Shown here piece after piece: positions 2,711 through 34,274 of a stretch of 64,000 nt of DNA. Position 1 is the first letter of the stretch; every line of letters begins with the position of its first letter. Position numbers and translations under genes: made by a program. A model generated the notes under the pieces. It ran no database searches. It worked only from the letters and a program-made list of their open reading frames with translations, and was not told where the DNA came from. This stretch comes from Cerasicoccus frondis (lineage in GTDB: Bacteria > Verrucomicrobiota > Verrucomicrobiia > Opitutales > Cerasicoccaceae), in contig NZ_JAVDPC010000003.1 in the NCBI RefSeq assembly GCF_031296915.1, positions 77,246 through 141,245 of the forward strand, in the 5' to 3' direction.

Positions 2711-5452
2711 TTACGGATTCGAGAAGACTCGCAGGAAGTAGGCGCGGAGGGTGTCGTTGGTAATCTCGAGCACCCGGGTCTCGGTGCCGTCTCCGTTGTC
2801 CGTGCTGCTGATCAGTGTGTAGTCGGTCTCCAGCACGAGCGTCTTCCATTCCTCCAGGTCGGCTGATCCCTCGTAGCCGATGGTGACGCCAGCGTCCGGG
2901 ATAAAGCGGGTATAGGTCACGCGAAACTGGCCATCGACATAACTAAACTCTGGCTCGACGCGGGCCAGCGCATCGTCCTGATTGGTGATGGTCAGCGCGG
3001 CGTAATTGCTGTAAGCAGTGCCGCCGTAGATGTTAGTCGTGTACGCGCGGAATTGGACCGTGCCGTTGGCGAGCGCCGTGATGAGTCCATCGCTGGAGAT
3101 ACTGGCTTCGTCGCCAACCATGACCCAGCTGACCTCGGTTTCGACTGCGTTTTCGGGGAGGATCGTCGCGGTCGCCTGCAGCGTGCCCGCGCGTTCGTCG
3201 ATGGTGGCTGTTTCCGGATCAATGCTGATGCTTGTCGCCGTCACCGGGCCAGCTTCCTGATTGTATACGTAGATGGTGTGGGTGTCAGTTGGGCCATCCA
3301 CGGATGTTACGCGAATAGTGGTGACCCCGTTTTGCAGGGCGGTGACCAGCCCATTGGAATCCACCGTGGCGACTGATGGATCAGACGACGTGTAGATCAT
3401 TGTCGGGTCGGTTGCATCGAGTGGGTAAAACGCCAGCTTGGTCTGTAGTGTCCCCAAATCCTCCCAGATCCAGGATGTTTTGCCCGACGAAGTAGTTACA
3501 TACAAATTGAGCGCCACGACTTCCGCATACTGGTTGCTCATCGTTACCGTGTGCGATGCGCTGACATCTGAGCCATCGGTGGCAGTCACCGTGACGGTGA
3601 CCGTACCATTGCCCTGTGAAGTCAGCACGCCATTGGCGTCGATGCTGGCGAAGCTGGAATTTTCCGTCCAGACGACTGCCTGATTCGTCGCGTTGGCTGG
3701 CGTGACGACGACATCGAAATCGATGCTCTGACCTAGCTCGTCGAGGGTATCCGTTAGCGGGGTAATCGTGAGCCCGGTGACGAGCTGCGTAACGGAGACT
3801 TCCAGGCTCGCGCTCACGCCGGAGCCGTCGGTTGCCGTGGCCGTAATGGTGGCGGTTCCAGCGCCAATTGCTTCGAGGAGCCCGGTCGCTGAGACCGTTG
3901 CAATGCCGTTGTCCGAGCTCGACCAAGTGACCTCCTGGTTGCTGGCGTTGACGGGGGAGGCGTCGGTATAAAGCTGCTCGGTGTCGCCAAAGGCGGTAAA
4001 GAACATCACACCCGGAGTGACCGCCAGCGACTCAATGGGAATCACGGGTCCCATGCCGTCCTGATTAGTCACTTCGATGGAAATTGTGTCCGCAACGCCG
4101 AGGCCGTAATTGGCCGTCGCCGTCACGATGACGGTTCCGTTGCCAACTGCGGTCAGGAGGCCGTCTGTATTAATCGTCGCTACGGTGTGATCATCAACGG
4201 TCCACACCACGGGTTGATCCGCCGTCTCGGCGGGCAGTAAATCGGCCGTGAGCGAAAGCGTTCCGTTGTCGACATCGATGCTGGTGGCGGAAGCTTGAAT
4301 TGTGACAGAACTCACTGGACGTTCGCCAACTTCGATTAAGCGAGGTTCACTGGGAAAGCCGTCATTGAAGCTTTGCCGAACACTAACGCTAACGGTCGAG
4401 GTATTGACCTCGTAGATCGTCCCCAATCCACTGCCCGATCCGCCATAGCGCGTTACTCCGAAGACCCGGCCCGCCCAAGTCGTCAGGAGTGAGCCGGTGG
4501 TGATATACGTGCCCGAGGAGGTGAAGCTATGCACAAAGTCCAGCGTTTCGGTGGTGGGATTGTAGCGGAGCACGCCGCCTTGACCATTGACGCCTCCAAT
4601 GGAGGCCTGGAGGTAGAGATTGCCATCGGGCCCCACGGCGAAGCCCTCTCCATGCCACGACTCGTAAGTATAATGTACTTTCTCACTGAAGGTGTCGGTA
4701 TCCAGGTCATACTCGAATAGCACGCCGTTGCCGTTGTCGCCGCTCCAGGTGGTGGAGCCGTAAATGCGCTGCCCAATCATGGCCAGGGTGGGGGTAGGGC
4801 TCCGACCGCCTACGGAGCCAAACGAGTGCAGGACGCGCCAGGTTTGAGTATCTAGATCATACTCATAGAGCACGCCCCTATCTTCGTCACCGCCACTGTA
4901 TGTCGTGCCGTAAATCAGATGATTGTTCACGAGAAGGAAGTTCGATTCGGTAAACGCGGTGCGTCCCTCCGCATTGGGATAGTCGTAAACCAGATCCAAT
5001 GAATGGGCCACGGGGTTGTAAGCGTAGAGCGAGCCGTTGCTCTCAATCGACATGACAATGAACCGGCCATCGGGAACTAGGAGTAGTTGTTGGCCAATGT
5101 AGATCTCCGGATGATGTTCGACCGAGAAAAGCTCGTATTGGGGATCATACGAGTAAATGACGCCAGCGCCATGCTCTCCGCCTTGAGCGGTAATCCCGTA
5201 AAGCTTGCCGTCGCTACCCTCGGTCAGGGCGCCGTTGGGCCACTCTCCCCGCAGTCCACCTTCAAAATGGTGCACTTTTTCGAAACTGCCGCCATCTGCC
5301 GCCATGCGAAAGATGTAGCCGTAGTTATGGTCGCCTCCGAGGTAGGAGGTTCCCCAGATCTCGGAGTATTGTGCGCGAGCCGCGCCAGCCGCGAAGACCA
5401 AGACGACAAAGAGCAGCAGTGTTTTAGAGTAGGAGGAAATCGAAATCCGCAT
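2711..5452 (-). CDS. Large secreted protein with N-terminal beta-propeller-like Gly-rich repeats and multiple Big_2 (bacterial Ig-like) domains
   Basis: Signal peptide MRISISSYSKTLLLFVVLVFAAGAARA. Repeated G-G-x-x-G-V-L/I-Y motifs (SBBP-like) are followed by about 6 repeats of the kind ...VTWSSSD.GIATVSATGLLEAIGAGTATITATA.DGSG.... Confidence 0.7.
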   Translation of the reverse strand: MRISISSYSKTLLLFVVLVFAAGAARAQYSEIWGTSYLGGDHNYGYIFRMAADGGSFEKVHHFEGGLRGEWPNGALTEGSDGKLYGITAQGGEHGAGVIYSYDPQYELFSVEHHPEIYIGQQLLLVPDGRFIVMSIESNGSLYAYNPVAHSLDLVYDYPNAEGRTAFTESNFLLVNNHLIYGTTYSGGDEDRGVLYEYDLDTQTWRVLHSFGSVGGRSPTPTLAMIGQRIYGSTTWSGDNGNGVLFEYDLDTDTFSEKVHYTYESWHGEGFAVGPDGNLYLQASIGGVNGQGGVLRYNPTTETLDFVHSFTSSGTYITTGSLLTTWAGRVFGVTRYGGSGSGLGTIYEVNTSTVSVSVRQSFNDGFPSEPRLIEVGERPVSSVTIQASATSIDVDNGTLSLTADLLPAETADQPVVWTVDDHTVATINTDGLLTAVGNGTVIVTATANYGLGVADTISIEVTNQDGMGPVIPIESLAVTPGVMFFTAFGDTEQLYTDASPVNASNQEVTWSSSDNGIATVSATGLLEAIGAGTATITATATDGSGVSASLEVSVTQLVTGLTITPLTDTLDELGQSIDFDVVVTPANATNQAVVWTENSSFASIDANGVLTSQGNGTVTVTVTATDGSDVSASHTVTMSNQYAEVVALNLYVTTSSGKTSWIWEDLGTLQTKLAFYPLDATDPTMIYTSSDPSVATVDSNGLVTALQNGVTTIRVTSVDGPTDTHTIYVYNQEAGPVTATSISIDPETATIDERAGTLQATATILPENAVETEVSWVMVGDEASISSDGLITALANGTVQFRAYTTNIYGGTAYSNYAALTITNQDDALARVEPEFSYVDGQFRVTYTRFIPDAGVTIGYEGSADLEEWKTLVLETDYTLISSTDNGDGTETRVLEITNDTLRAYFLRVFSNP

Positions 5453-6112
5453 GGCTGATGAGAATGTAACTATACCTAATGAAAAATTAATGAACGCTTA
5501 ATGTATTTTGAATTTTTGACCGGTTGCTTTGGAGGAAGGGGGGACTCAAGTTTATTGACGCTGGGCAAAATTGCCTCAGCAATTGGCTGCGTCATTGAGT
5601 CAGCGGCAGGGGGATTGCGGAAGCTAGCGCGCCCTGCTGCATATTCCCGAGCCGCCGACCGGCATGGCCGACCTCGGCGCGGTTACGCTTGGCGCCTTCG
5701 TGTTGCAACGCCGACGTAAGGGGGCGAGGGGGATAGGCGTTGGTTAAGACGCCCAGTTGTCGCGGAGTTTAAAGCTACGTCCAATAAGAAAGGTGGAGCC
5801 CGGTGTCCCGACCGGGCTTGTTCCATCCAGTTGACCAACTGAGAGGCAAAGCAAGCCTGCTCGGAACCGCCTCTTAGAAGAGCAGGACCAAGCTCCACCT
5901 CAGTTAGATCGTTAAGGAAACAAAGCCAAGACGGTTGGAACAGATGCGGGATCAGGTCTTGGGGGAATGTTTAAAATCTACGTTCTACCCTTTTTAGGTT
6001 CATCACCTCGAATCATCTTCATTTCATCAGAGACACTCACTCTTTTGGGATGGCGTAAAGAATGGATTCGTGAATGCGACGTGTTACATTAATCCGCCCA
6101 CAAATCACTGTA

Positions 6113-6922
6113 CTAACGGGTAGCGTATATATCATTCGCATAGATTAAACTTTGATTGCCAGACAAACGAACTAAGTTTTGGCGAAACTGAAGTCTACTG
6201 GCACTAGGATAGTTTTGCTTAAGGATGGACACATCCTCATTGAATCGGTCTGTCACCTTAAGGAAACCGCCAATAGCATAATATACATCCTTCTCAGAAA
6301 TTCGCATATCTCCAGTACGGACCTTTCTTGAGGTGGTAGTCTGATCATACTTCTGCCTAGCGGTTAGATTAAAAGAACCAATGTAAGCAACCTCACCACT
6401 CTGCACGTTGATTTGACCCTCAAATGCCAGACCTGGAAACATCAATTTTGAGGAAAGAAACGAATGGTTTAGGGGAACAAAGGCCCCTCCAGCATAAACT
6501 GTGGTTGATGCGTTGTACGTTCCAGTACATTCTAATCTGGCAATCCTGTAGCTCCCAACCGGCAACCCCTCAAAAGCAACAGTACCATATACCCTCCCGA
6601 TTTTGCTGATAGACTTAGAGTTTTTACTCTGGAATTTCTGCGATTTGACTAAAGAATCAAAAACCATAGTCCGATTAGTGGTGTCTTCTACAAGAACCAT
6701 CCTCACATTTCCTACATTAAGCACTGAGGCATCGGGTATTTCACCTTTTGACTCCCTGAGGGATACAATCAGTGAAAACATTACAGCGCCCGTAGATTTT
6801 CCAATCCCGACGTTAGTGATCTCTTGATTAACCTTTTTTTCAAATTGCTGACCAGCGCACCCTGATAAGATCGCGACTGCAGTAAAGCATATAGCCAGTA
6901 AGTTGGGATATTTTGAATTCAT
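6113..6922 (-). CDS. Lipoprotein of unknown function, in a low-GC islet
   Basis: The internal start MNSKYPNLLAICFTAVAILSGCAG has a lipobox (LSGC). ATG at 6922. The local DNA is AT-rich relative to the flanks. Confidence 0.55.
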   Translation of the reverse strand: MNSKYPNLLAICFTAVAILSGCAGQQFEKKVNQEITNVGIGKSTGAVMFSLIVSLRESKGEIPDASVLNVGNVRMVLVEDTTNRTMVFDSLVKSQKFQSKNSKSISKIGRVYGTVAFEGLPVGSYRIARLECTGTYNASTTVYAGGAFVPLNHSFLSSKLMFPGLAFEGQINVQSGEVAYIGSFNLTARQKYDQTTTSRKVRTGDMRISEKDVYYAIGGFLKVTDRFNEDVSILKQNYPSASRLQFRQNLVRLSGNQSLIYANDIYATR

Positions 6923-7236
6923 CTTTGAATGGATAATGATTAAAACCATACCCACATATGAATTCCGCCCCGAATCAATACTTTTCCGCAAATTGTGGTT
7001 GAATGCCATCGTGCCCTGATTGCCAGTGATCCGTAAGTTCCTCCGAACCGGTCTGAGCCCAGAGCAATCAAACGAAGACCCAAGGGATACCAGTTCCTCA
7101 CCAAGCCAAGAACACAGATGGTCGTAGCACCCTCCAGGAGGCCGAAATGAAAAACGATTGGGGACCAAATCTTAGCGCTATTCACGTTTGACCCCTTTTT
7201 AACCTACCTCTCCTTTTTCTCCGATCGCATTTAATT

Positions 7237-8106
7237 TTAGCATTCATAATCGCACTTACTGCATTTGCGCTGCTCTTCATATTCACTGTATGAAATGAAG
7301 CGCATATTCCCTTGTTGGCATTGGGGGCAATTATTCCGACCGATGAATTGGTAAAGCTGCTCCTCTGTGTATTCATCAGAATCAATCTGCTGCTTCAGTT
7401 CTCGTAATTCTACGCCTGATTTCTCTCCACTGTATGAGCCTATTAATACCTGGTTGTGGTATTGGTTATGCTCGTCGTCATCGTCTGCAAAACAGATTCT
7501 AGCTTTGGGGATGAAATGCAGCTGTTCCACAATCTTTTTAACCTGTTCAACAGTGAATCCTTCTCCCAAGGATACAGTGAAATTTTTTGGGGTGTAGGCT
7601 CCTTTTCCAAAGGTTTCATGGACTGGAATTTTATTTGCAGTAAATCGCATATGGATTTCTCTAAAGTGCTGCAATGTCTCATTCAATGCAACAGTTACTG
7701 TAGACCACTTAATTTCAACACTGCTTGATATTACTGGGATCTCCACAGGACTTCTCATGATTGCTTGCTGTAATTCCGCTAAATCCTCCCTAATTTTTGA
7801 TACTGATTCAGTGGTCACTTCTAACTTTGTAAAGCCTGTTTTAGATTCAATGTACTTGGAATAGTAAACATCTTCCTGCATTTCAGGTCTGAATTTGGTT
7901 TGAAGTAAAAAAATGGATATTAAGAAAGCAGGGACATTTGTTATACTGGCAATTACTAAAGTTGCTGGGATCCATGATGGATTCTCTATGTGTGCTGCAG
8001 CAGTAAGAAAACTTAAGTTCACTAATACTAGTCCGCACAGCCAAGCGGCCAAAAGCTGTATTGGTTTTGTGATTTTATGAGCGTCAATTTTGGGGCTATT
8101 ATCCAT
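7237..8106 (-). CDS. Membrane protein with two N-terminal TM helices and a C-terminal CxxC...CxxC zinc-ribbon, in a low-GC islet
   Basis: ATG at 8106. TM segments LLAAWLCGLVLVNLSFL and LVIASITNVPAFLISIFLL. C terminus CPQCQQGNMRFISYSEYEEQRKCSKCDYEC. AT-rich codon usage. Confidence 0.55.
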   Translation of the reverse strand: MDNSPKIDAHKITKPIQLLAAWLCGLVLVNLSFLTAAAHIENPSWIPATLVIASITNVPAFLISIFLLQTKFRPEMQEDVYYSKYIESKTGFTKLEVTTESVSKIREDLAELQQAIMRSPVEIPVISSSVEIKWSTVTVALNETLQHFREIHMRFTANKIPVHETFGKGAYTPKNFTVSLGEGFTVEQVKKIVEQLHFIPKARICFADDDDEHNQYHNQVLIGSYSGEKSGVELRELKQQIDSDEYTEEQLYQFIGRNNCPQCQQGNMRFISYSEYEEQRKCSKCDYEC

Positions 8107-27831: not shown

Positions 27832-27860
27832 CCGAAATGAGTTATCAAATAACCAGTGAA

Positions 27861-27905
27861 GCCCGAGTCGCCCTCCAATCAAGCACTCGGGCCTTTTTGT
27901 TTTTA
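27861..27905 (+). terminator. Intrinsic terminator (GCCCGAGT...ACTCGGGC + T-run)
   Basis: 8-bp stem followed by CTTTTTGTTTTT. Confidence 0.55.
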
Positions 27906-28100
27906 CAGCATTTAAAGCAACAGTTGAACGGCGCCCTGGCCGCCTTATGTCAGGTAGAACGTCTCGTAAATGGCGTCCAAACCGCGATACCGGCCACTCC
28001 CGGAAATCGCGAGAGGGGCGAAACAGCAGTGCTTTATCTATAAATCAAAGCTGGGCATCGCCCCAGCAATCGGACGCGAAACCGCGTCTTTTAAATTCAA

Positions 28101-28140: not shown

Positions 28141-28214
28141 AGGAAGGTGGTGTAACGACAACATGCGAGTCTCCAAAACTTGAGCCGAGGGTTTGACTCC
28201 TTCTCTTCCTGCCA
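28141..28214 (+). tRNA. tRNA-Trp (CCA)
   Basis: 74 nt. Acceptor AGGAAGG/TCTTCCT (one G-U). Anticodon arm CGAGT-CTCCAAA-ACTTG. T arm GAGGG-TTTGACT-CCTTC, with a T at the position of the usual T-loop C56. Encoded CCA. Confidence 0.6.
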
Positions 28215-28267
28215 CCAAAGCGCAGCTTTGGAAACTGGATGCTGTCGCATCCAACTTTCTCTTTTGT

Positions 28268-28343
28268 TCGGCGGTAGTTCAATTGGTAGAACCCCTCCCT
28301 GTTAAGGAGGCAGTTACAGGTTCGAAGCCTGTCCACCGAGCCA
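28268..28343 (+). tRNA. tRNA-Asn (GTT)
   Basis: Canonical cloverleaf. D arm GTTCAATTGGTAGAAC, anticodon loop CTGTTAA, T loop TTCGAAG, encoded CCA. Closely resembles bacterial tRNA-Asn. Confidence 0.8.
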
Positions 28344-28389
28344 CCAAGGCTTCGCCTTGGAACCGAGAAACTGCGTGTCTCATTTTTTC
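28344..28389 (+). repeat. tRNA-associated tandem-hairpin repeat, copy a
   Basis: CCAAGG-CTTCG-CCTTGG, then AACCGAG, then GAGAAAC-TGC-GTGTCTC, then ATTTTTT. Confidence 0.6.
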
Positions 28390-28443
28390 GCGCTTCGGCA
28401 TGCCTTCGGTCAGCCCTGTCCACCAATTTCATAAACGCCTGAG

Positions 28444-28505
28444 TGCATGATAAACGCGCCGCGTTTCTATAATTAACGAATGGCTGCTACTGAGATACAA
28501 TGATC
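28444..28505 (+). promoter_or_regulatory. Repeated promoter-like element, copy 1
   Basis: CATGATAAACG...TCTATAATTAACG...TACTGAGA, with a TATAAT -10-like hexamer. A near copy lies at 29973-30040. Confidence 0.4.
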
Positions 28506-28615
28506 TCCGAAGCCATCACTATTACCTTAAAGGGAAGATGCCGCCGTCTGTGTTGGAACACCAGGAAATGGCCCTCTGCTAGGATGCGGAGAAAACCAGA
28601 CGGCGGCGCAATTTT

Positions 28616-28653
28616 CCAAGGCAAGCCTTGGAACCGAGATGCTGCGCATCTCA
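28616..28653 (+). repeat. tRNA-associated tandem-hairpin repeat, copy b
   Basis: CCAAGG-CAAG-CCTTGG, AACCGAG, GAGATGC-TGC-GCATCTC, A. Sits immediately 5' of tRNA-Ser. Confidence 0.6.
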
Positions 28654-28661
28654 CATTCTAC

Positions 28662-28750
28662 AGAGGATGCTGCGTAGTGGGTTGCGACGCCGCTTGCTAA
28701 GCCGCCGATTCCCCGTGGGGAATGTGGTTCGATTCCACCGTCCTCTGCCA
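28662..28750 (+). tRNA. tRNA-Ser (GCT), class II
   Basis: 89 nt. Long variable arm TTCCC-CGTG-GGGAA. Anticodon loop TTGCTAA, with a C-C mismatch in the anticodon stem. Acceptor AGAGGAT/GTCCTCT. Encoded CCA. Confidence 0.6.
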
Positions 28751-28762
28751 ACTTTCTATTCT

Positions 28763-28838
28763 GGCCAAGTAGCCCAACGGCAGAGGCATCGGTCTTAAGA
28801 ACCGTAATGTGTGGGTTCGAATCCCTCCTTGGTTACCA
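28763..28838 (+). tRNA. tRNA with a Leu anticodon (TAA) but class I (short variable arm) architecture
   Basis: 76 nt. Anticodon arm TCGGT-CTTAAGA-ACCGT. T arm GTGGG-TTCGAAT-CCCTC. Discriminator A73. Encoded CCA. Confidence 0.5.
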
Positions 28839-28864
28839 ACTTTACGTTGCAACGAGATTGGATT

Positions 28865-28940
28865 GGGCGGGCATGTGCCATGGAGGCGACAGTGCTTTGC
28901 AAGCATCGTGCGGCGGGTTCGATTCCCGTACCGTCCACCA
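28865..28940 (+). tRNA. tRNA-Ala (TGC)
   Basis: Anticodon loop TTTGCAA. A G3-U70 wobble pair, the Ala identity element, is present. The D arm is poorly formed by eye. Encoded CCA. Confidence 0.6.
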
Positions 28941-28956
28941 ATTTTATTTACTGCAT

Positions 28957-29030
28957 GGTGATGTAGCTCAATGGCAGAGCAACCGGCCGATAACCGGTCG
29001 ACCCTGGTTCGATTCCCGGCATCACTACCA
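28957..29030 (+). tRNA. tRNA-Ile (GAT) with C33
   Basis: Canonical D arm GCTCAATGGCAGAGC. Perfect anticodon stem ACCGG/CCGGT with loop CCGATAA, so C where U33 is expected. Encoded CCA. Confidence 0.65.
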
Positions 29031-29084
29031 GCAGGGCTGGTCATAAATTCCGCGTACCGCAATCCGCGTACCGCAATTTCTTTT

Positions 29085-29157
29085 GCCTCCTTAGTTCAAT
29101 GGTAGAACAGCCGGTTTTGCCCGGTTGACCGTGGTTCGATTCCATGCGGGGGCGCCA
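29085..29157 (+). tRNA. tRNA-like gene with a 6-nt anticodon loop (TTTTGC); identity undetermined (Lys/Gln-like)
   Basis: Good acceptor, D arm (GTTCAATGGTAGAAC) and T arm. The anticodon stem CCGG/CCGG leaves only a 6-nt loop. Encoded CCA. Possibly a pseudogene. Confidence 0.4.
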
Positions 29158-29161
29158 ATTT

Positions 29162-29258
29162 CGTAGAGTGCGCGAGTATGGCTAAAGCGACTTGGCTTGG
29201 AACCAAGTGAATTGCCCCGTTGGCCGTTCCGTGGGTTCGAATCCCACCTCTGCGACCA
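29162..29258 (+). tRNA. Class II-like (long variable arm) tRNA carrying a UGG (Pro) anticodon
   Basis: 97 nt. Acceptor CGTAGAG/CTCTGCG. Leu-like D arm. Anticodon arm CTTGG-CTTGGAA-CCAAG. 23-nt variable arm with a hairpin. T arm GTGGG-TTCGAAT-CCCAC. A73. Encoded CCA. Confidence 0.4.
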
Positions 29259-29295
29259 AGTTTCTAAATATGCTTTGCATTGCAAAGCTTCTGAT

Positions 29296-29371
29296 GGGCT
29301 CATGGTGAAAGCGAAGATCATGCAAGGGCGCGAACCTTGCGTTGGAGGTTTGAGTCCTCCTGAGCCTACCA
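29296..29371 (+). tRNA. tRNA-Arg (GCG) with C33 and T-loop TTTGAGT
   Basis: Perfect anticodon stem CAAGG/CCTTG with loop GCGCGAA. Acceptor GGGCTCA/TGAGCCT. Encoded CCA. Confidence 0.55.
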
Positions 29372-29411
29372 GCAGGGCAATGCCCTGCACCCGAGATACT
29401 GGCGTATCTCA
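29369..29411 (+). repeat. tRNA-associated tandem-hairpin repeat, copy e (variant)
   Basis: CAGGGC-AAT-GCCCTG, ACCCGAG, GAGATAC-TGGC-GTATCTC, A, followed by a T-rich run. Confidence 0.5.
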
Positions 29412-29426
29412 TATTCTTTCTTAACT

Positions 29427-29504
29427 GCAGGTGCGTGGCCCAAGGGGCAGGGGCATCAGGTTGTGAGCCTGGGGAAGTGGGTTCGAATCCCACCCACCTG
29501 ACCA
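29427..29504 (+). tRNA. tRNA-His (GTG) with a G-1 extension
   Basis: Anticodon arm TCAGG-TTGTGAG-CCTGG. An extra 5' G precedes the acceptor stem. Encoded CCA. Confidence 0.6.
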
Positions 29505-29507
29505 CCG

Positions 29508-29547
29508 CCAAGGCTACGTCTTGGAACCGAGATGCTGCCGCATCTCA
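29508..29547 (+). repeat. tRNA-associated tandem-hairpin repeat, copy c
   Basis: CCAAG-GCTACGT-CTTGG, AACCGAG, GAGATGC-TGCC-GCATCTC, A. Confidence 0.6.
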
Positions 29548-29590
29548 TGGCTTCGCGATTAGTCATGCGCTCTTCGTAACTCCCTTTCAT

Positions 29591-29662
29591 CGCAGAGTAG
29601 CTCAACGGATAGAGCTCCGGTCTCATACGCCGGCGGTACGGGTTCGATTCCCGTCTCTGCAA
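29591..29662 (+). tRNA. tRNA-Met (CAT), initiator-like (C1-A72 mismatch), without an encoded CCA
   Basis: Acceptor CGCAGAG/CTCTGCA with the terminal C-A mismatch seen in bacterial tRNA-fMet. Anticodon arm CCGGT-CTCATAC-GCCGG. A73 is followed by CTG, not CCA. Confidence 0.6.
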
Positions 29663-29669
29663 CTGTTTC

Positions 29670-29744
29670 GGGTGCATCGTCCAGCGGCTAGGACAACGCA
29701 TTGTCTATGCGAAAACGCCGGTTCGATTCCGGCTGTGCCCGCCA
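29670..29744 (+). tRNA. tRNA-Asp (GTC)
   Basis: D arm GTCC-AGCGGCTA-GGAC. Anticodon loop TTGTCTA. T arm GCCGG-TTCGATT-CCGGC. Encoded CCA. Confidence 0.7.
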
Positions 29745-29752
29745 TTTTAATT

Positions 29753-29827
29753 TACGGGATAGTGTAGTCGGTAACACCGCAGATTTTGAATCTGCTATCG
29801 GAGGTTCAAACCCTTCTCCCGTAGCCA
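29753..29827 (+). tRNA. tRNA-Gln (TTG)
   Basis: Perfect acceptor TACGGGA/TCCCGTA, D arm GTGT/ACAC and anticodon arm GCAGA-TTTTGAA-TCTGC. Encoded CCA. Confidence 0.8.
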
Positions 29828-29865
29828 AAGCAAGCTTGGAACGGAGTTGCTGAGCATCTCATTTT
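29825..29865 (+). repeat. tRNA-associated tandem-hairpin repeat, copy d
   Basis: CCAAAG-CAAG-CTTGG, AACGGAG, GAGTTGC-TGA-GCATCTC, ATTTT. Confidence 0.55.
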
Positions 29866-29884
29866 GCCATCTCAATTTTTCTCT

Positions 29885-29960
29885 GGCGCTGAACCCCAAT
29901 GGCGAGGGCGCGGGCCTGCAAAGTCCGCTCTATCGGGTTCGAATCCCGGCGGCGCCTCCA
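29885..29960 (+). tRNA. tRNA-Cys (GCA)
   Basis: Anticodon arm CGGGC-CTGCAAA-GTCCG. Discriminator U73, the Cys identity element. Encoded CCA. Confidence 0.75.
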
Positions 29961-29972
29961 ATATTTCAGCGA

Positions 29973-30040
29973 CCATGATAAACGAAGTGCGATTCTGTAA
30001 TTAACCTCGTCCTTTCGAAATATTATACTGAGAGCATGAA
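29973..30040 (+). promoter_or_regulatory. Repeated promoter-like element, copy 2, at the start of a ~500-bp AT-rich spacer inside the tRNA array
   Basis: CATGATAAACG...TCTGTAATTAACC...TACTGAGA parallels copy 1. Confidence 0.35.
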
Positions 30041-30508
30041 ACATTCTAACTAAAATAAAGACTAAACAGCGTAACTAACGATCCGCCATGATATACAAAC
30101 TGTATTCAAAATTAGCTGATAATCCGGAAAAGATTTTAAAGGAGTTTAGGCTCAGAGTGAACTTTTCTGGAGACAGGTGATAAACTAATACACGAAATTA
30201 TGACATCGCCAATTATTGTAAGCGAAACGAGATATGATTCGTCTTCAGCGGGCTCAGACATGATCAGAATCGGGACCAGTCCATTCTTTTAAAACCCATC
30301 TCGTGGTATCATTCAATTCTCGGCTCATGAGTAATTTTTGCATTCCGCCAATCACATGAATTTCTGCGCGCTCAATCGAACGTTCGGTTAGCGCGCTCAT
30401 AACCCTTTCCACGTCGGTCGACGGCGGCGTCTTGCGTCCATTTTGATGGTCTTGCGATTCGCCGTTCCGTTTCAGGCAGTCTAAGCGACGTGAGAAACAT
30501 AGACATCT

Positions 30509-30583
30509 GAGGATATAGCTCAGTGGTAGAGCAGCTCGCCGTAAGCGAGTAAGTCGGCGGTTCGATTCCGCTTATCTTCGCCA
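30509..30583 (+). tRNA. tRNA with a Tyr anticodon (GTA), class I architecture and C33
   Basis: Canonical D arm GCTCAGTGGTAGAGC. Anticodon arm GCTCG-CCGTAAG-CGAGT. Short variable loop (bacterial tRNA-Tyr is normally class II). Encoded CCA. Confidence 0.5.
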
Positions 30584-30586
30584 AGA

Positions 30587-30658
30587 GAACTGTTAGCTCA
30601 GTTGGTAGAGCAGTGGATCGAAAATCCATTAGTCTCGGGTTCGATTCCCGAACAGCAA
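30587..30658 (+). tRNA. tRNA-Phe (GAA)-like with C33 and a degenerate 3' acceptor strand; abuts tRNA-Thr; probable pseudogene
   Basis: The body closely matches bacterial tRNA-Phe (AGCTCAGTTGGTAGAGC; anticodon loop TCGAAAA). The 3' strand ACAGCAA pairs with only 4 of 7 acceptor positions. No CCA. Confidence 0.45.
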
Positions 30659-30660
30659 TC

Positions 30661-30738
30661 GGAAAAGTAGTGCAGTCAGGTTAGCGCACTGGTCTTGTAA
30701 ACCAGAGGTCGAGGGTTCGAATCCCTCCTTATCCACCA
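30661..30738 (+). tRNA. tRNA-Thr (TGT)
   Basis: Anticodon arm CTGGT-CTTGTAA-ACCAG. T arm GAGGG-TTCGAAT-CCCTC. Encoded CCA. Confidence 0.75.
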
Positions 30739-31115: not shown

Positions 31116-32759
31116 TTGTCCAACTCCCCGCGGGCCCATTTTCTTTTTAACCTAAGTGCAGACGCATGGCTGAGCGTGACCCCGGAAGGTTACGGCTGCG
31201 TGCGTTGTGTGCTTCTTCTGAAACCTCAACCCAACACGAACATGATCCCGATCAAATATGTGAACATTCCGTATGAGCACTTTGGTCTCGTTTACCGTGA
31301 CGGACGTTTCGTGAAGCTGCTGAAGCCGGGTCGCACCTGGTACTTCGATCCACTCTGGCGAGTGTCCATCGGCAAGCTCTGGCAGGGCAAGCCGTGGATC
31401 GAAATGCCGGCGACGCAGCTGCGTCAGCTTCGCGAATCTCCCGCCATTCAAGAGCACGCAGCGTTCATAGACCTGAAGGATACGCAGCGCGCGCTCGTTT
31501 GGCTGGACGGCCGTTTCCACGGCATCCTCGAGCCGGGGCTCTACGCCTACTGGAAAACCGTCGTTGAAGTCCGCGTGGAAATCATGGATGTGCGCAACAT
31601 CCTGTTCCGCCACGACGAAGCCGACGTCATCCTCAAGACCGCTGTGGCCAAGCGTTACCTAGACGTTTACGAAACTGCCGAAAACCTCGGCAGCGTAGTT
31701 TACGTGGACGGACGCTTTCACGGCGTTTACGGTCCGGGAACCATTGGCTACTGGAAGAACGGTCTGACCGTTCGCCGTGAGTCCTTTGCGCTCCCGTGGC
31801 TACCGATGCACGACAACGAACTCGAAAAGCTCCGTGAAGACGGTCAGCTCGACGCGTTCGCATCCTTCGTCGATGTTCAGGACAACCAGCGCGCACTGGT
31901 GTGGTTTAACGGCCGCTTCCATTGCATTCTGGGGCCGGGCCTCTACGCCTACCTAAAGGAAGGGCATGAGGCCCGCGTCAACCTGATCGACGCGACGATG
32001 CCGCAGTTCATCTACGATGAGCTCGACGTCATCTTTAAGCACGCCGAGGCGCTTCGCCAGCTCGCGGTTTACGAAATCGGAGACAACGAGCAGGGCGTGC
32101 TTTACCAGGATGGGAAGTTCACTGAACTTCTCTCCCCGGGCCGCTACGCGTTCTGGAAGGATGTGGGCAACGTCCGCGTCCGCCAATACGATCTGCGTGA
32201 GCAAGTCCTCGACGTGAGCGGGCAGGAAATAATGACGGCAGACAAGGTAACCCTGCGTCTGAACGCCGTGCTGACCTACCGCATCGTCGATGTCCGCAAG
32301 GCAGCTGAAACCGTGAAGGACGCCGAACAGGCGCTCTACCGTGAGCTTCAACTGATCATCCGTGCGGAAGTCGGCGGCCGCACCCTCGACCAATTGCTGA
32401 CGGACAAGACTGCGGTGGCGCACGACGCCCTGAAGTCTATCCAGCAAAAGGCCGAAGGCTACGGTCTCGCAGTCAAGGGGCTGGGTATCCGCGATGTCAT
32501 CCTGCCGGGTGACATGAAGGAGCTCCTGAACCAAGTCATCGAAGCCGAAAAGGCCGCCCAAGCCAACGTCATCAAACGCCGCGAAGAAACGGCCGCCATG
32601 CGCAGCCAGCTCAACACGGCCAAGATGATCGAAGACAACCCGACGCTCCTGCGCCTGCGAGAGCTCGAGACGGTCGAAAAGATCGCTGAAAAGTCGAACC
32701 TGCAAATCTTCGTTGGGGATGGGCAGGGGCTCACCAAGAGCATTGTCAAACTAGTCTAA
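31116..32759 (+). CDS. SPFH/Band-7 domain protein with five N-terminal tandem ~35-aa repeats (DGRF...PG.YA.WK)
   Basis: C-terminal half carries an SPFH domain plus coiled coil (...VTLRLNAVLTYRIVD...IRDVILPGDMKE...). The N-terminal half has 5 repeats of Y.DGRFhg.L.PG.Y.YWK...VR. No TM helix found. An alternative start is at 31242 (MIPIKY). Confidence 0.65.
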   Translation: MSNSPRAHFLFNLSADAWLSVTPEGYGCVRCVLLLKPQPNTNMIPIKYVNIPYEHFGLVYRDGRFVKLLKPGRTWYFDPLWRVSIGKLWQGKPWIEMPATQLRQLRESPAIQEHAAFIDLKDTQRALVWLDGRFHGILEPGLYAYWKTVVEVRVEIMDVRNILFRHDEADVILKTAVAKRYLDVYETAENLGSVVYVDGRFHGVYGPGTIGYWKNGLTVRRESFALPWLPMHDNELEKLREDGQLDAFASFVDVQDNQRALVWFNGRFHCILGPGLYAYLKEGHEARVNLIDATMPQFIYDELDVIFKHAEALRQLAVYEIGDNEQGVLYQDGKFTELLSPGRYAFWKDVGNVRVRQYDLREQVLDVSGQEIMTADKVTLRLNAVLTYRIVDVRKAAETVKDAEQALYRELQLIIRAEVGGRTLDQLLTDKTAVAHDALKSIQQKAEGYGLAVKGLGIRDVILPGDMKELLNQVIEAEKAAQANVIKRREETAAMRSQLNTAKMIEDNPTLLRLRELETVEKIAEKSNLQIFVGDGQGLTKSIVKLV

Positions 32760-32810: not shown

Positions 32811-33173
32811 ATGCTTGAAATTTACACCGCAAAAATTAACTTTGTGGGGCAAAGTAATCGCCCCCTCATGTCGAAGAAAATCGTTGAAGATCTTGCCTGC
32901 TCGCTCTGCGGTCGCGCCACACCGGCTAAGCATGCCGAGAAACATCACCTAGTGCCGCGATCCAAGGGCGGGACGGACACCATTGATGTTTGCCGAAACT
33001 GCGGCGACCAGGTCCATAAGCTTTTTTCGAATAACGAACTTCGCGACGAATACAACACGCTGGAGAAGCTGCGAACCGCACCGGGAATGGAGAAATGGAT
33101 CCGCTGGGTGCGCAAGCAGGATAGCTTCACCTTCTCGATGAAGTCGCCCAAGGGCCGACGCTCGGACAAGTAG
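32811..33173 (+). CDS. Small HNH endonuclease
   Basis: CSLCG...HHLVPRSKGG...CRNCGDQVH fits the HNH zinc-finger nuclease pattern. Possible start at 32868. Confidence 0.7.
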   Translation: MLEIYTAKINFVGQSNRPLMSKKIVEDLACSLCGRATPAKHAEKHHLVPRSKGGTDTIDVCRNCGDQVHKLFSNNELRDEYNTLEKLRTAPGMEKWIRWVRKQDSFTFSMKSPKGRRSDK

Positions 33174-33275: not shown

Positions 33276-34274
33276 ATGAATACCGAAGAACTGCGCCTGA
33301 TTCGGGATTGTTTACCCGAGGGGCGCACCAAGTATTATTACTTCAAAGACGCTTATCTATTCCAGATACTCAAGTGGAAACTGGGCGAGGCGCAGGCCAC
33401 GGCTTCTTCGCTCAAACAACACGCGCAATGGCAACGCTTCGCCAAGAAGGAAGCCTTCGCGCGTTACCTGTCGAAGTGGCCCGATGGCTTGGTCGATGGC
33501 GAGCGCTTGGGCTACTATTGGCCGAGTGATCAGGAGGTGCATGCGTTCCGTTTAACATTGGGCGAGTGGGGGCAGGAGCCGAGCAATCAGAACGATTCCT
33601 GGTTTCAGACTTCGCGTTCCGGCTGGAACCTCGTGCTTCAGCTGAACTTTCCCGCCGAGCATGACCGCGAATACCGCAACCTGGTTGGTCCGGATGGAGG
33701 CAGCTACTTCGCGTGGACGTTTCACCCGGTGCGCGTGGGCCAGTTTAATACGCTGGCTTGGGCGCGTCTGGATATCGACCTTGATCGCGGCGTGGCCTTG
33801 ATTGAGGAAATTCAAACCGACTGGCTACGCGAGGCTGCGGATCAACGTAGTCACTTGGCTAAGGAACTGAAGCGCGGTCAGCTGAAGCTCGATGACCGCT
33901 GGTGGCAGTCCACCGTGGGGAACGTGATCAGCTACTTCGATCGCAACCTCGAGCCCTTGCTCGATGTGTGGGACGAGGCCATGTTGTCGGCGGCCCTGTG
34001 GTTCCTCTACAAGGAGCTCGGCGTTTCGCGGGTGTATTATCACACGTGGGAGTCGGGGCTGCTCTACAAGCAGTTGACGGAAGACAGCGCGCCGCCGCGT
34101 TCACTCTACACCAAGCTGCCGAAACGATTCGGTTTTGAAAAGGTGGAGATGGGCCCAAGTTTCCTCGACGAGGCGCAGAAGTCTCGCCGTTTCTGGAAGC
34201 GGCGCAAGGACAAGCGAACCACCGCAGCCTGGTGGCGTCTGGACCTGGAGCCCGCCATTCAATTCGCCAAATAG
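33276..34274 (+). CDS. Hypothetical protein (333 aa), unknown function
   Basis: ATG at 33276 is preceded by GGGAGG at an RBS-appropriate distance. No motif recognized. Confidence 0.5.
   Translation: MNTEELRLIRDCLPEGRTKYYYFKDAYLFQILKWKLGEAQATASSLKQHAQWQRFAKKEAFARYLSKWPDGLVDGERLGYYWPSDQEVHAFRLTLGEWGQEPSNQNDSWFQTSRSGWNLVLQLNFPAEHDREYRNLVGPDGGSYFAWTFHPVRVGQFNTLAWARLDIDLDRGVALIEEIQTDWLREAADQRSHLAKELKRGQLKLDDRWWQSTVGNVISYFDRNLEPLLDVWDEAMLSAALWFLYKELGVSRVYYHTWESGLLYKQLTEDSAPPRSLYTKLPKRFGFEKVEMGPSFLDEAQKSRRFWKRRKDKRTTAAWWRLDLEPAIQFAK

Follow-up and report, generated by a model that had tools for sequence, protein, structure and literature searches.

What is to be made of bacterial tRNA genes that carry C at position 33, where U is treated as invariant in elongator tRNAs? 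The question is raised by a dense array of tRNA genes in Cerasicoccus frondis (Verrucomicrobiota), four of which show C33 in the anticodon loop. The array lies in a stretch of 64,000 nucleotides (nts), hereafter the window (NCBI RefSeq assembly GCF_031296915.1, contig NZ_JAVDPC010000003.1, positions 77,246 to 141,245 of the forward strand), and is followed by a gene for a slipin of the SPFH/Band 7 family. The anomaly has been confirmed, is inherited and stands out clearly in statistical terms, and its gene context is suggestive and largely undescribed. Judging from comparison with related genomes, a natural bacterial system has here lost U33 repeatedly and has then kept the loss.

Four array genes with C33

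We called tRNA genes with ARAGORN and with the Rfam tRNA covariance model RF00005 at a threshold of 29 bits. ARAGORN found 17 genes in the array, all on the plus strand between positions 28141 and 30738, which amounts to about 6.5 genes per kb over 2.6 kb. The initial annotation, made from the window by inspection, had reported C33 in the Ile(GAU), Arg(GCG), Tyr(GUA) and Phe(GAA) genes, with each loop closed by a 5-bp stem in an unambiguous register. Both programs confirmed C33 in all four genes and agreed on the register (Table 1). No automated fold places U at position 33: such a shift was ruled out by the covariance model and by minimum-free-energy folding, and the latter merely extends the stems, by a C32-G38 pair in Tyr, by a U32-A38 pair in Phe and by a shifted 6-bp alternative in Ile. 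The loop positions given earlier were exact for Ile, Arg and Phe, whereas the Tyr loop had been placed 7 nts too low (30532-30538 instead of 30539-30545). Below, the Tyr and Phe genes are called X and Y. Sequencing error is excluded, since other, independently sequenced genomes contain identical C33 loops: that of Arg is found in C. maritimus, and that of Phe both there and in C. fimbriatus.

The cloverleaf is recognized in all four genes, which score 42-62 bits and have intact stems. This argues against the view that they are decaying pseudogenes, i.e., dead copies in the course of being lost, as does the conservation of Arg and Y across species. The unstable content of the array and its damaged members, such as a gene with a 6-nt loop (29085-29157) and an X/Y chimera in C. 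maritimus, would fit that view, which we nevertheless consider very improbable.

Loss of U33 in ten related arrays

The array set comprised ten genomes, namely the window and nine further independent arrays that were collected via contigs with slipin homologs and one genome-wide DNA pattern scan. Three belong to named species: C. maritimus (L014, approximately 95% nucleotide identity to the window), C. fimbriatus (L001) and Puniceicoccus vermicola (L024). The other six come from lineages represented by metagenome-assembled genomes (MAGs; L003, L005, L009, L012, L025 and L036). Two kinds of control array were processed in the same way: nine phage tRNA arrays from IMG/VR with 117 unique tRNAs, and the experimentally studied L-array of Anabaena with 24 tRNAs. 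Phage sequences that resembled the 5' half of Y proved to be ordinary Lys, Val and Leu tRNAs with full acceptor stems and were kept as a control set.

Among 95 unique seven-nucleotide loops of the ten arrays, 15 (16%) lack U33, with C in 13 of them and A and G in one each; two further array genes have 6-nt loops. The window contributes four such loops out of 16. None of the 141 control tRNAs lacks U33 (0/117 in the phage arrays and 0/24 in the Anabaena L-array). The difference is significant for the array family against all controls (Fisher p = 5.8e-7) and for the window alone against the 117 phage-array tRNAs (Fisher p = 1.5e-4). Loss of U33 thus characterizes the array family as a whole.

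U33 was lost independently on no fewer than seven occasions, namely in Ile (C. frondis), Arg, Lys (L009), X, Y and each of two His lineages that are unrelated to one another (L003 and L005). The Arg change is confined to the clade of C. frondis and C. maritimus, and four outgroups have U33. The Ile gene has no ortholog in the two sister species, and its closest relative is the C33 His gene of L005 (75% body identity). Y carries C33 in Cerasicoccus and G33 in L005, and X is non-U33 in most lineages. G34 is found in 12 of the 13 C33 genes, the exception being Lys of L009. C33 is one of several departures from the usual rules in these arrays, the others being A33 or G33, 6-nt loops, Watson-Crick pairs between positions 32 and 38, and switched tRNA classes.

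Drift or selection

To what extent C33 is maintained can be judged best for Y. Between C. frondis and C. fimbriatus, 70 of the 243 four-fold degenerate sites of the slipin gene differ (28.8%), whereas three Cerasicoccus species share one and the same 17-nt anticodon arm of Y, C33 included, and the Y body differs by 9-13%. If 17 sites evolved neutrally at the slipin divergence, all of them would stay unchanged with a probability of about 0.003. Because the arm is identical despite this synonymous divergence, C33 is, on the strength of the alignment, under purifying selection in at least this one case. In Arg, the body is 96-98% conserved in L003 and L014; the C. maritimus ortholog has an identical loop, and a double change adjoins it (G26-C44 to A-U).

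The main rival explanation is relaxed constraint. It states that the array members are redundant working tRNAs, that housekeeping copies carry the load, and that U-to-C changes drift in repeatedly, C33 having no function. This would account for the untidiness of the array, i.e., the frequent stem mismatches, the 6-nt loops, the CCA-less genes and the X/Y fusion of C. maritimus, and it agrees with gene content that shifts between close species and with non-U33 nucleotides that are mostly C, the mildest change. U33 replacements in yeast tRNA-Phe and tRNA-Tyr reportedly remained partly active in the work of Dix et al. in 1986 and Bare et al. in 1983. In addition, C33 is compatible with the ribosome in eukaryotic initiator tRNAs (PMC5041475). 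However, the supernumerary, fast-evolving arrays used as controls (phage and Anabaena) show no loss of U33, the Y arm with its C33 has been frozen over 29% synonymous divergence, a compensatory change lies beside the Arg loop, and the C33 genes are as intact as their U33 neighbors (mean Rfam scores of 54.6 and 53.8 bits, respectively). Relaxed constraint is therefore possible but, in our judgment, unlikely. The earlier proposal that recurrent C33 in one array is more than plain drift is borne out by the enrichment against two kinds of control array, by the several origins and by the purifying selection on the Y arm. Taken together, C33 looks like a maintained trait.

Terminal tRNA-like genes

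Each array ends in two or three tightly packed tRNA-like genes, of which X and Y are the most unusual. X has a variable region of 5 nts and thus lacks the long variable arm of bacterial tRNA-Tyr, and the possible C32-G38 pair would leave it a loop of only 5 nts. Its orthologs have the loops CAGUCAG (with A33), GCAUUGC, GCAAGAC, GCAUCAC, AUCAUAA, GUACGAA and the 6-nt GUCCGC. Five X genes have a G-C or C-G pair between positions 32 and 38, a pairing that is absent from all 117 control tRNAs of the phage arrays. In Y, the acceptor consists only of ACUGU/ACAG(U), positions 1-72 and 2-71 are unpaired, and no CCA is encoded. Members of the Y family share a conserved body (ACUGUUAGCUCAG...GAACAGU) with 4-6 acceptor pairs, and their anticodons vary by genus, with eight different ones in all (among them GAA, UAU together with G33, CUG, CAA, ACG and CAU). 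Since the bodies of X and Y are atypical and the anticodons of their orthologs switch, "Tyr" and "Phe" are labels for the present triplets only. By these features, X and Y are not ordinary decoders, and the earlier suggestion that some of the C33 genes encode decoys or tRNA-like RNAs fits both of them well. The last gene, Z, is likewise variable in identity (Table 1). In C. maritimus (L014, 4124-4195), a deletion between D-arm sequences common to both genes has fused X and Y; the resulting chimera retains Y's C33 loop, and its acceptor arms are unable to pair.

X/Y/Z or Y alone always stand directly upstream of slipin, even in L012, where the other array genes are missing. It could be argued from this position that the three elements act in cis, as RNase P/Z processing or stability signals at the 5' end of the slipin mRNA, and that only their shape is selected. 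The anticodons that are not kept between genera and an acceptor-less tRNA-like element in front of slipin-rtcA-rtcB in a Pontiellaceae locus (L037, see below) would agree with such a role. On the other hand, the loop and stem of Y are perfectly conserved in Cerasicoccus, beyond its body, which would not be expected if shape alone were selected; moreover, cis action covers only two of the four C33 genes of the window and leaves C33 in Ile, Arg, His and Lys unexplained. We thus regard it as quite improbable.

The variable part of the array

The variable part comprises, in this order, Trp, Asn, Ser, Leu(UAA, without a long arm), Ala, Ile(GAU, C33), a Lys-like gene with a 6-nt loop, Pro(UGG, with a long variable arm), Arg(GCG, C33), His, Met/Ile2(CAU), Asp, Gln and Cys. 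The gene content differs even between close relatives: C. frondis has 17 array genes, its two sister species C. maritimus and C. fimbriatus have 10 each, the sets are not the same, and the block 28738-29271, which holds the Ile gene, is absent in both sister species. Because 10 of the 17 window genes are missing from the sister-species arrays, at least these 10 are dispensable or duplicated elsewhere.

In the regular members, loop positions 32, 33, 37 and 38 vary, and anticodon changes between genera are synonymous (UGU/CGU, UGG/CGG, UAA/CAG and GCG/ACG). Since these changes preserve the amino acid, the regular members behave as selected decoders. The Ile and Arg genes have a class-appropriate body with an acceptor stem of 7 bp and, at the 3' end, CCA or an addition site for it. 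The Arg ortholog of L003 is 98% identical outside the anticodon arm and has the loop CUACGAA; within the arm, only four of the 10 stem positions and four of the seven loop positions match the window gene. From this pattern, the anticodon arm is swapped as a cassette in some array genes, such as this Arg pair.

Several other members are peculiar in ways that do not involve U33. The Arg (29296-29371) and Trp (28141-28214) genes have no G18G19 and have U at position 56, and both features are kept across genera; with neither G18G19 nor C56, both partners of the G19-C56 elbow pair are gone. A tRNA of 97-98 nts with a Pro anticodon (UGG or CGG) combines a long variable arm with a D-arm of the Tyr/Leu kind and is conserved across genera. 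Conversely, the Leu tRNAs of the arrays (28763-28838 in the window) have no long arm; this trait is likewise kept across genera, and it is also seen in all four Leu tRNAs of the Anabaena L-array. The Lys-like gene at 29085-29157 has the 6-nt loop UUUUGC, which appears to be a one-base deletion of the loop of its L003 ortholog (UUUUUGC). The "Met(CAU)" gene (29591-29663) shows a C1xA72 mismatch and no CCA, and its L005 ortholog reads GAU (Ile); instead of a Met tRNA, the gene may thus encode a tRNA-Ile2 of the lysidine type.

A conserved unit of leader, array and slipin

In ten Puniceicoccaceae genomes, the order of elements is the same: a terminator-like hairpin, a leader, the variable tRNA genes, an element that we call pre-X, the terminal tRNA-like genes and slipin (coordinates are listed in Table 1). 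Slipin is the sole protein gene that always adjoins the array. The outer flanks of this block vary from genome to genome, and the leader, the array and slipin therefore form a conserved unit, since the genes beyond both of its ends differ.

The leader candidate has a core of GGUnAAACGUCnnGUAAAnGGCGUCCAAACC, a hairpin of variable length and GAGAGGGGCGAAAC, enclosed by an outer helix (UAAAGCA/UGCUUUA). It contains long invariant blocks and at least two covarying helices, and RNAalifold detected double compensatory changes in six pairs. The leader does not match any Rfam family. A search of metagenomes with the leader pattern returned nothing, and a looser pattern gave nine chance matches without tRNAs. 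The leader may be a riboswitch-like or protein-binding controller of the tRNA operon. A leader-peptide attenuator in front of it was considered: a Shine-Dalgarno sequence and ATG are conserved at about 27837, but the frame is not maintained from species to species, and no stop codon precedes the hairpin.

The pre-X element consists of GUCGRCGGC, a covarying helix, GUUCCG and CAGRCnUUCUAA, with two pairs showing double changes. It shares only the short motif GUGUUCCG with the leader of the Pontiellaceae rtc locus, and homology between the two is uncertain. In the 550-nt gap of the array lies a 58-nt core whose identity to L003 contrasts with that of the proteins, which is only about 72% between the window and L003. 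As a minus-strand open reading frame (ORF), this core would meet a stop after six codons, and its conservation is too high for coding. A spacer module of about 45 nts with two hairpins (CCAAGGCnnnGCCUUGG AAC CGAGAUGCUGCGCAUCUC) follows tRNA genes in six copies; it appears to be specific to Cerasicoccus and may be a processing or termination signal.

The window flanks of the array consist of housekeeping genes (folP, an ABC transporter, ClpB, ProRS, ValRS, MscK and glycosidases), and one neighboring protein matches a C. frondis protein with 100% identity. A phage origin was examined with BLAST against 50,697 phage genomes, which yielded generic tRNA similarity only, and neither the leader nor the long-arm Pro gene had a match in IMG/VR. 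As the flanking genes are ordinary chromosomal ones and the phage matches are generic, the array is not of phage nature. The phage-encoded tRNAs to which the initial annotation had likened the C33 genes are thus not what is found here; the array is an operon on the chromosome that has been passed on vertically within a Verrucomicrobiota family. Elsewhere in the window, a low-GC island (6001-8000; 42% compared with about 55%) contains two minus-strand ORFs without family matches (6113-7168 and 7237-8106) and may have been acquired horizontally.

Table 1. Positions of the array elements, the C33 genes, the downstream protein genes and their counterparts in other loci
Feature	Sequence	Position	Strand	Remarks
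Terminator-like hairpin	window	27860..27904	+	GCCCGAG...CUCGGGC and T-run; directly upstream of leader; stem covaries (GCCCAAG/CUUGGGC in L009)
Structured leader RNA candidate	window	27913..28036	+	about 125 nts; upstream of array in 10/10 genomes
Leader	L001	7323-7439
Leader	L003	7702-7818
Leader	L005	8068-8168
Leader	L009	4371-4477
Leader	L012	3617-3733
Leader	L014	2248-2364
Leader	L024	4595-4700
Leader	L025	3597-3706
Leader	L036	~3450-3560
Variable array part	window	28141..29960	+	14 tRNA genes; ARAGORN, Rfam
Spacer-module copies	window	28212-28245, 28341-28386, 28612-28657, 29369-29410, 29505-29545, 29835-29865
Ile(GAU)	window	28957..29030	+	stem ACCGG/CCGGU; loop CCGAUAA 28987-28993; C33 = 28988; 61.1 bits
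Long-arm Pro tRNA	window	29162-29258
Long-arm Pro tRNA	L005	8960-9056
Long-arm Pro tRNA	L009	5107-5204
Arg(GCG)	window	29296..29371	+	stem CAAGG/CCUUG; loop GCGCGAA 29328-29334; G32; C33 = 29329; 41.9 bits
58-nt ultra-conserved core	window	30227..30284	.	96.6% identical to L003 8502-8559; also in L001, L014
Pre-X element	window	30416..30489	+	always just 5' of terminal tRNA-like genes
X, "Tyr"(GUA)	window	30509..30583	+	stem GCUCG/CGAGU; loop CCGUAAG 30539-30545; C33 = 30540; 62.2 bits
Y, "Phe"(GAA)	window	30587..30658	+	stem GUGGA/UCCAU; loop UCGAAAA 30618-30624; C33 = 30619; 53.0 bits
Z, last array gene	window	30661..30738	+	Thr(UGU); elsewhere Thr(CGU), Phe, Leu(AAG), Ile-like, Pro(AGG)
Slipin (SPFH/Band 7), 505 aa	window	31242..32759	+	Pfam Band_7; 94% identical to C. 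fimbriatus slipin
Small HNH endonuclease (HlpB-like)	window	32811..33173	+	Pfam HNH_5, 29.4 bits (cut-off 27.5); kept in L001, L002
P332, conserved protein	window	33276..34274	+	GNAT-like predicted fold; no Pfam domain
P332	L025	8708-9694
P332	L036	6247-7236
P332	L038	7001-7999
P332	L039	7001-7948

Slipin, P332 and RNA-repair neighborhoods

Downstream of slipin, the window encodes a small HNH endonuclease, which scores 69 bits against the NCBIfam HlpB model (under the family cut-off), and a conserved protein named P332. The P332 family comprises approximately 900 proteins annotated as hypothetical, with a GNAT-like fold that is predicted confidently, and its genes stand repeatedly by RtcB and Band_7 genes in four phyla. 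A Puniceicoccaceae MAG (L025) has the order array, slipin, a 415-aa protein, P332 and RtcB, and a gammaproteobacterium (L038) has RtcB and P332. In Tunicatimonas pelagia (Bacteroidota; L039), Band_7, P332, DinB and RtcB come after two tRNA-like genes (5521-5704) whose T-loops both contain a conserved insertion of 21 nts. In a Pontiellaceae MAG from another phylum (L037), a divergent rtcR and a sigma-54 promoter (TGGCACGTTCCTAGCA) precede a tRNA-like element, slipin, RtcA and RtcB; the element (4543-4737 region) has no acceptor arms and matches positions 7-64 of the Rfam tRNA model with 54.7 bits. An SPFH gene is also embedded in the rtc locus of Pseudomonas aeruginosa (PMC13086221).

These neighborhoods bear on another explanation, in which poor loops keep some of the array members off the ribosome and these tRNAs serve as aminoacyl donors or as substrates of a transferase, possibly P332 acting at the membrane together with slipin. 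The GNAT fold class includes aminoacyl-tRNA transferases and tRNA acetyltransferases, P332 has a predicted fold of that kind and lies downstream of slipin in three loci, and the 5-nt loop of X and the anticodon switching of Y make decoding seem unimportant for both. An analogy would be offered by the staphylococcal non-proteinogenic tRNA-Gly and by the Fem and MprF enzymes. However, P332 is missing in C. fimbriatus and in several other array loci, its strongest partner is RtcB and not tRNAs, and Y has neither CCA nor a normal acceptor stem, which argues against aminoacylation. We therefore give this explanation little credence.

A possible role in damage to anticodon loops

From the anatomy of the unit, the enrichment, the conservation and the gene linkage, all of which are observed directly, we infer an operon that would be expressed, would resist nucleases and would supply both spares and decoys when anticodon loops are damaged. 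We consider this the best reading at present, though a tentative one. A supernumerary tRNA operon would have been inherited with a slipin gene in Puniceicoccaceae, and the slipin/HNH/P332 neighborhood is one that in other bacteria forms part of RtcB/RtcA/RtcR RNA-repair loci. The operon would be used when anticodon loops are attacked by toxin, defense or stress RNases. Its variable spare tRNAs, whose amino-acid identity is kept and which include Ile-GAU and Arg-GCG, would act as replacement decoders, and the fixed terminal X and Y, with loops that are non-canonical or switch anticodons, would act as tRNA mimics, i.e., decoys or competitive inhibitors.

C33 would set these loops apart from those of housekeeping tRNAs at the U-turn nucleotide, which is read by loop-directed enzymes. 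TGT, which acts in queuosine formation, requires U33-G34-U35, so the C33 His genes and X would probably be without queuosine. Since U33C abolishes t6A37 formation by E. coli TsaBCDE (PMC8887486), Ile-GAU of the window and Lys of L009 would likewise be hypomodified at t6A37. The contact-dependent toxin CdiA-CT EC536 cleaves tRNA-Ile(GAU) exactly between positions 32 and 33 (PMC11724271).

Several observations weigh against the spare-and-decoy reading. No RtcB, RtcA, RtcR or anticodon nuclease was found among the scanned ORFs of the 64-kb window, and the sigma-54 promoter is found only in the Pontiellaceae locus and in none of the Puniceicoccaceae units. U33C gives no protection against the K. 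lactis gamma-toxin, the one toxin for which a test of this change was met in the literature (PMC2275089). The isoacceptor that bears C33 changes by lineage, so that no consistent target emerges; the array of L036 has no non-U33 gene at all. The comparison with non-array tRNAs comprises only the two seen in related loci, both of which are canonical. The many single stem mismatches, the 6-nt loop, the CCA-less genes and the X/Y fusion are signs of slack. The initial annotation had linked C33 to anticodon nucleases; when approximately 45 window ORFs were scanned with PADLOC and Pfam, no anticodon-nuclease or other defense gene was found among them. Nevertheless, the nuclease link is strengthened circumstantially by the attachment of the operon to genes that are found elsewhere in RtcB/RtcA/RtcR repair loci.

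A wider and rather unlikely reading is that these loci represent an undescribed, widespread class of RNA-damage-response loci (Band-7/slipin and P332, often with RtcB/RtcA) that have atypical tRNAs or tRNA mimics of their own, in which loss of U33 is adaptive. As parts of the same joint reading, the Puniceicoccaceae version would have grown into a full spare tRNA operon with a structured leader, and loss of U33 would hide the RNAs from anticodon-loop nucleases, from U33-dependent modification enzymes or from both.

Whichever reading applies, the system allows one to ask in vivo what U33 is needed for, be it decoding, t6A/queuosine modification or nuclease recognition. It ties supernumerary tRNA arrays to RtcB-type RNA-repair neighborhoods in a second phylum, and it exposes three conserved but unannotated elements, namely the structured leader RNA, the X/Y/Z genes and the family of about 900 members with a GNAT-like fold, in a genus (Cerasicoccus) that can be cultivated.

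Comparison with known systems

The closest known counterparts are the cyanobacterial L-arrays, such as the trn operon of Anabaena PCC 7120 (Santamaria-Gomez et al. 2021, PMC8421152; Tran et al. 2016, PMC4758250). In many cases, rtcB and an HNH gene are linked to these arrays and regulated together with them, and the array tRNAs were proposed to refill the tRNA pool or to soak up toxin RNases as sponges (PMC8421152). Like them, the present array is a dense polycistronic cluster that covers most amino acids and whose content turns over fast; it has an HNH neighbor, an rtcB neighbor in relatives (L025, L037 and L039) and Leu tRNAs without a long arm, and the L-array holders listed include the phylum Verrucomicrobia. 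Unlike them, it has only 7-17 genes (up to 43 in L-arrays). Tran et al. define an L-array by at least 20 tRNA genes at no fewer than two per kb (PMC4758250), so that the 17 genes of the window stay under the number required, although their density suffices. Other differences are vertical inheritance at one locus, upstream of slipin, within a family (compared with mobile elements), a structured leader and terminal tRNA-like genes of its own, and the 16% of loops without U33, against none of 24 in Anabaena. Common descent with the Anabaena L-array was considered and rejected: only generic tRNA similarity (58-70%) was seen, with no isoacceptor-specific component.

A second comparison concerns RNA-repair operons. 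Rtc operons are switched on by tRNA halves that arise from anticodon-loop cleavage, and the Salmonella rsr-yrlBA-rtcBA operon encodes YrlA, a tRNA mimic that is not cut by the nuclease and was proposed to be a competitive inhibitor (PMC7790460). X, Y and the tRNA-like genes of L037 and L039 resemble YrlA in being tRNA-like RNAs in or beside a neighborhood of the RtcB type. They differ from it in that X and Y keep an anticodon arm and RtcB is not adjacent in C. frondis. No Ro60/Rsr (TROVE) gene, Ro-binding helix or Rfam Y-RNA match was found among the scanned window ORFs and in the Rfam scans.

As natural tRNAs without U33, the reviews consulted cite only eukaryotic initiator tRNA-Met (C33) and Candida tRNA-Ser(CAG) (G33) (PMC5041475, PMC8887486). 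As in these cases, C33 or G33 occurs here within an otherwise normal cloverleaf, and C33 alters which modification enzymes act; as in the Candida tRNA, loss of U33 is coupled to a shifted anticodon identity in X and Y. The known exceptions, however, are single, deeply conserved, special-purpose tRNAs, whereas many bacterial elongator-type genes of one operon have lost U33 independently here. Our literature search turned up no description of bacterial elongator-type genes in which C33 recurs.

Finally, anticodon-loop mutations in phage tRNAs are predicted to allow escape from anticodon nucleases (PMC10264068). The escape tRNAs of mycobacteriophage C1 and T5 (PMC10264068, PMC11464382, PMC11555353) are, like the array genes, extra copies whose anticodon loop and stem depart from those of the main cellular tRNAs on a tRNA-like body, and the logic proposed for both is insensitivity to loop-cutting enzymes. 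In contrast to the phage tRNAs, the array is encoded by a bacterium, and no cognate nuclease was found in the window scans; the known phage cases alter the recognition site of the nuclease and not U33. If the spare-and-decoy idea proves to be true, bacteria would apply to themselves the trick that phages use against tRNA-cutting defenses.

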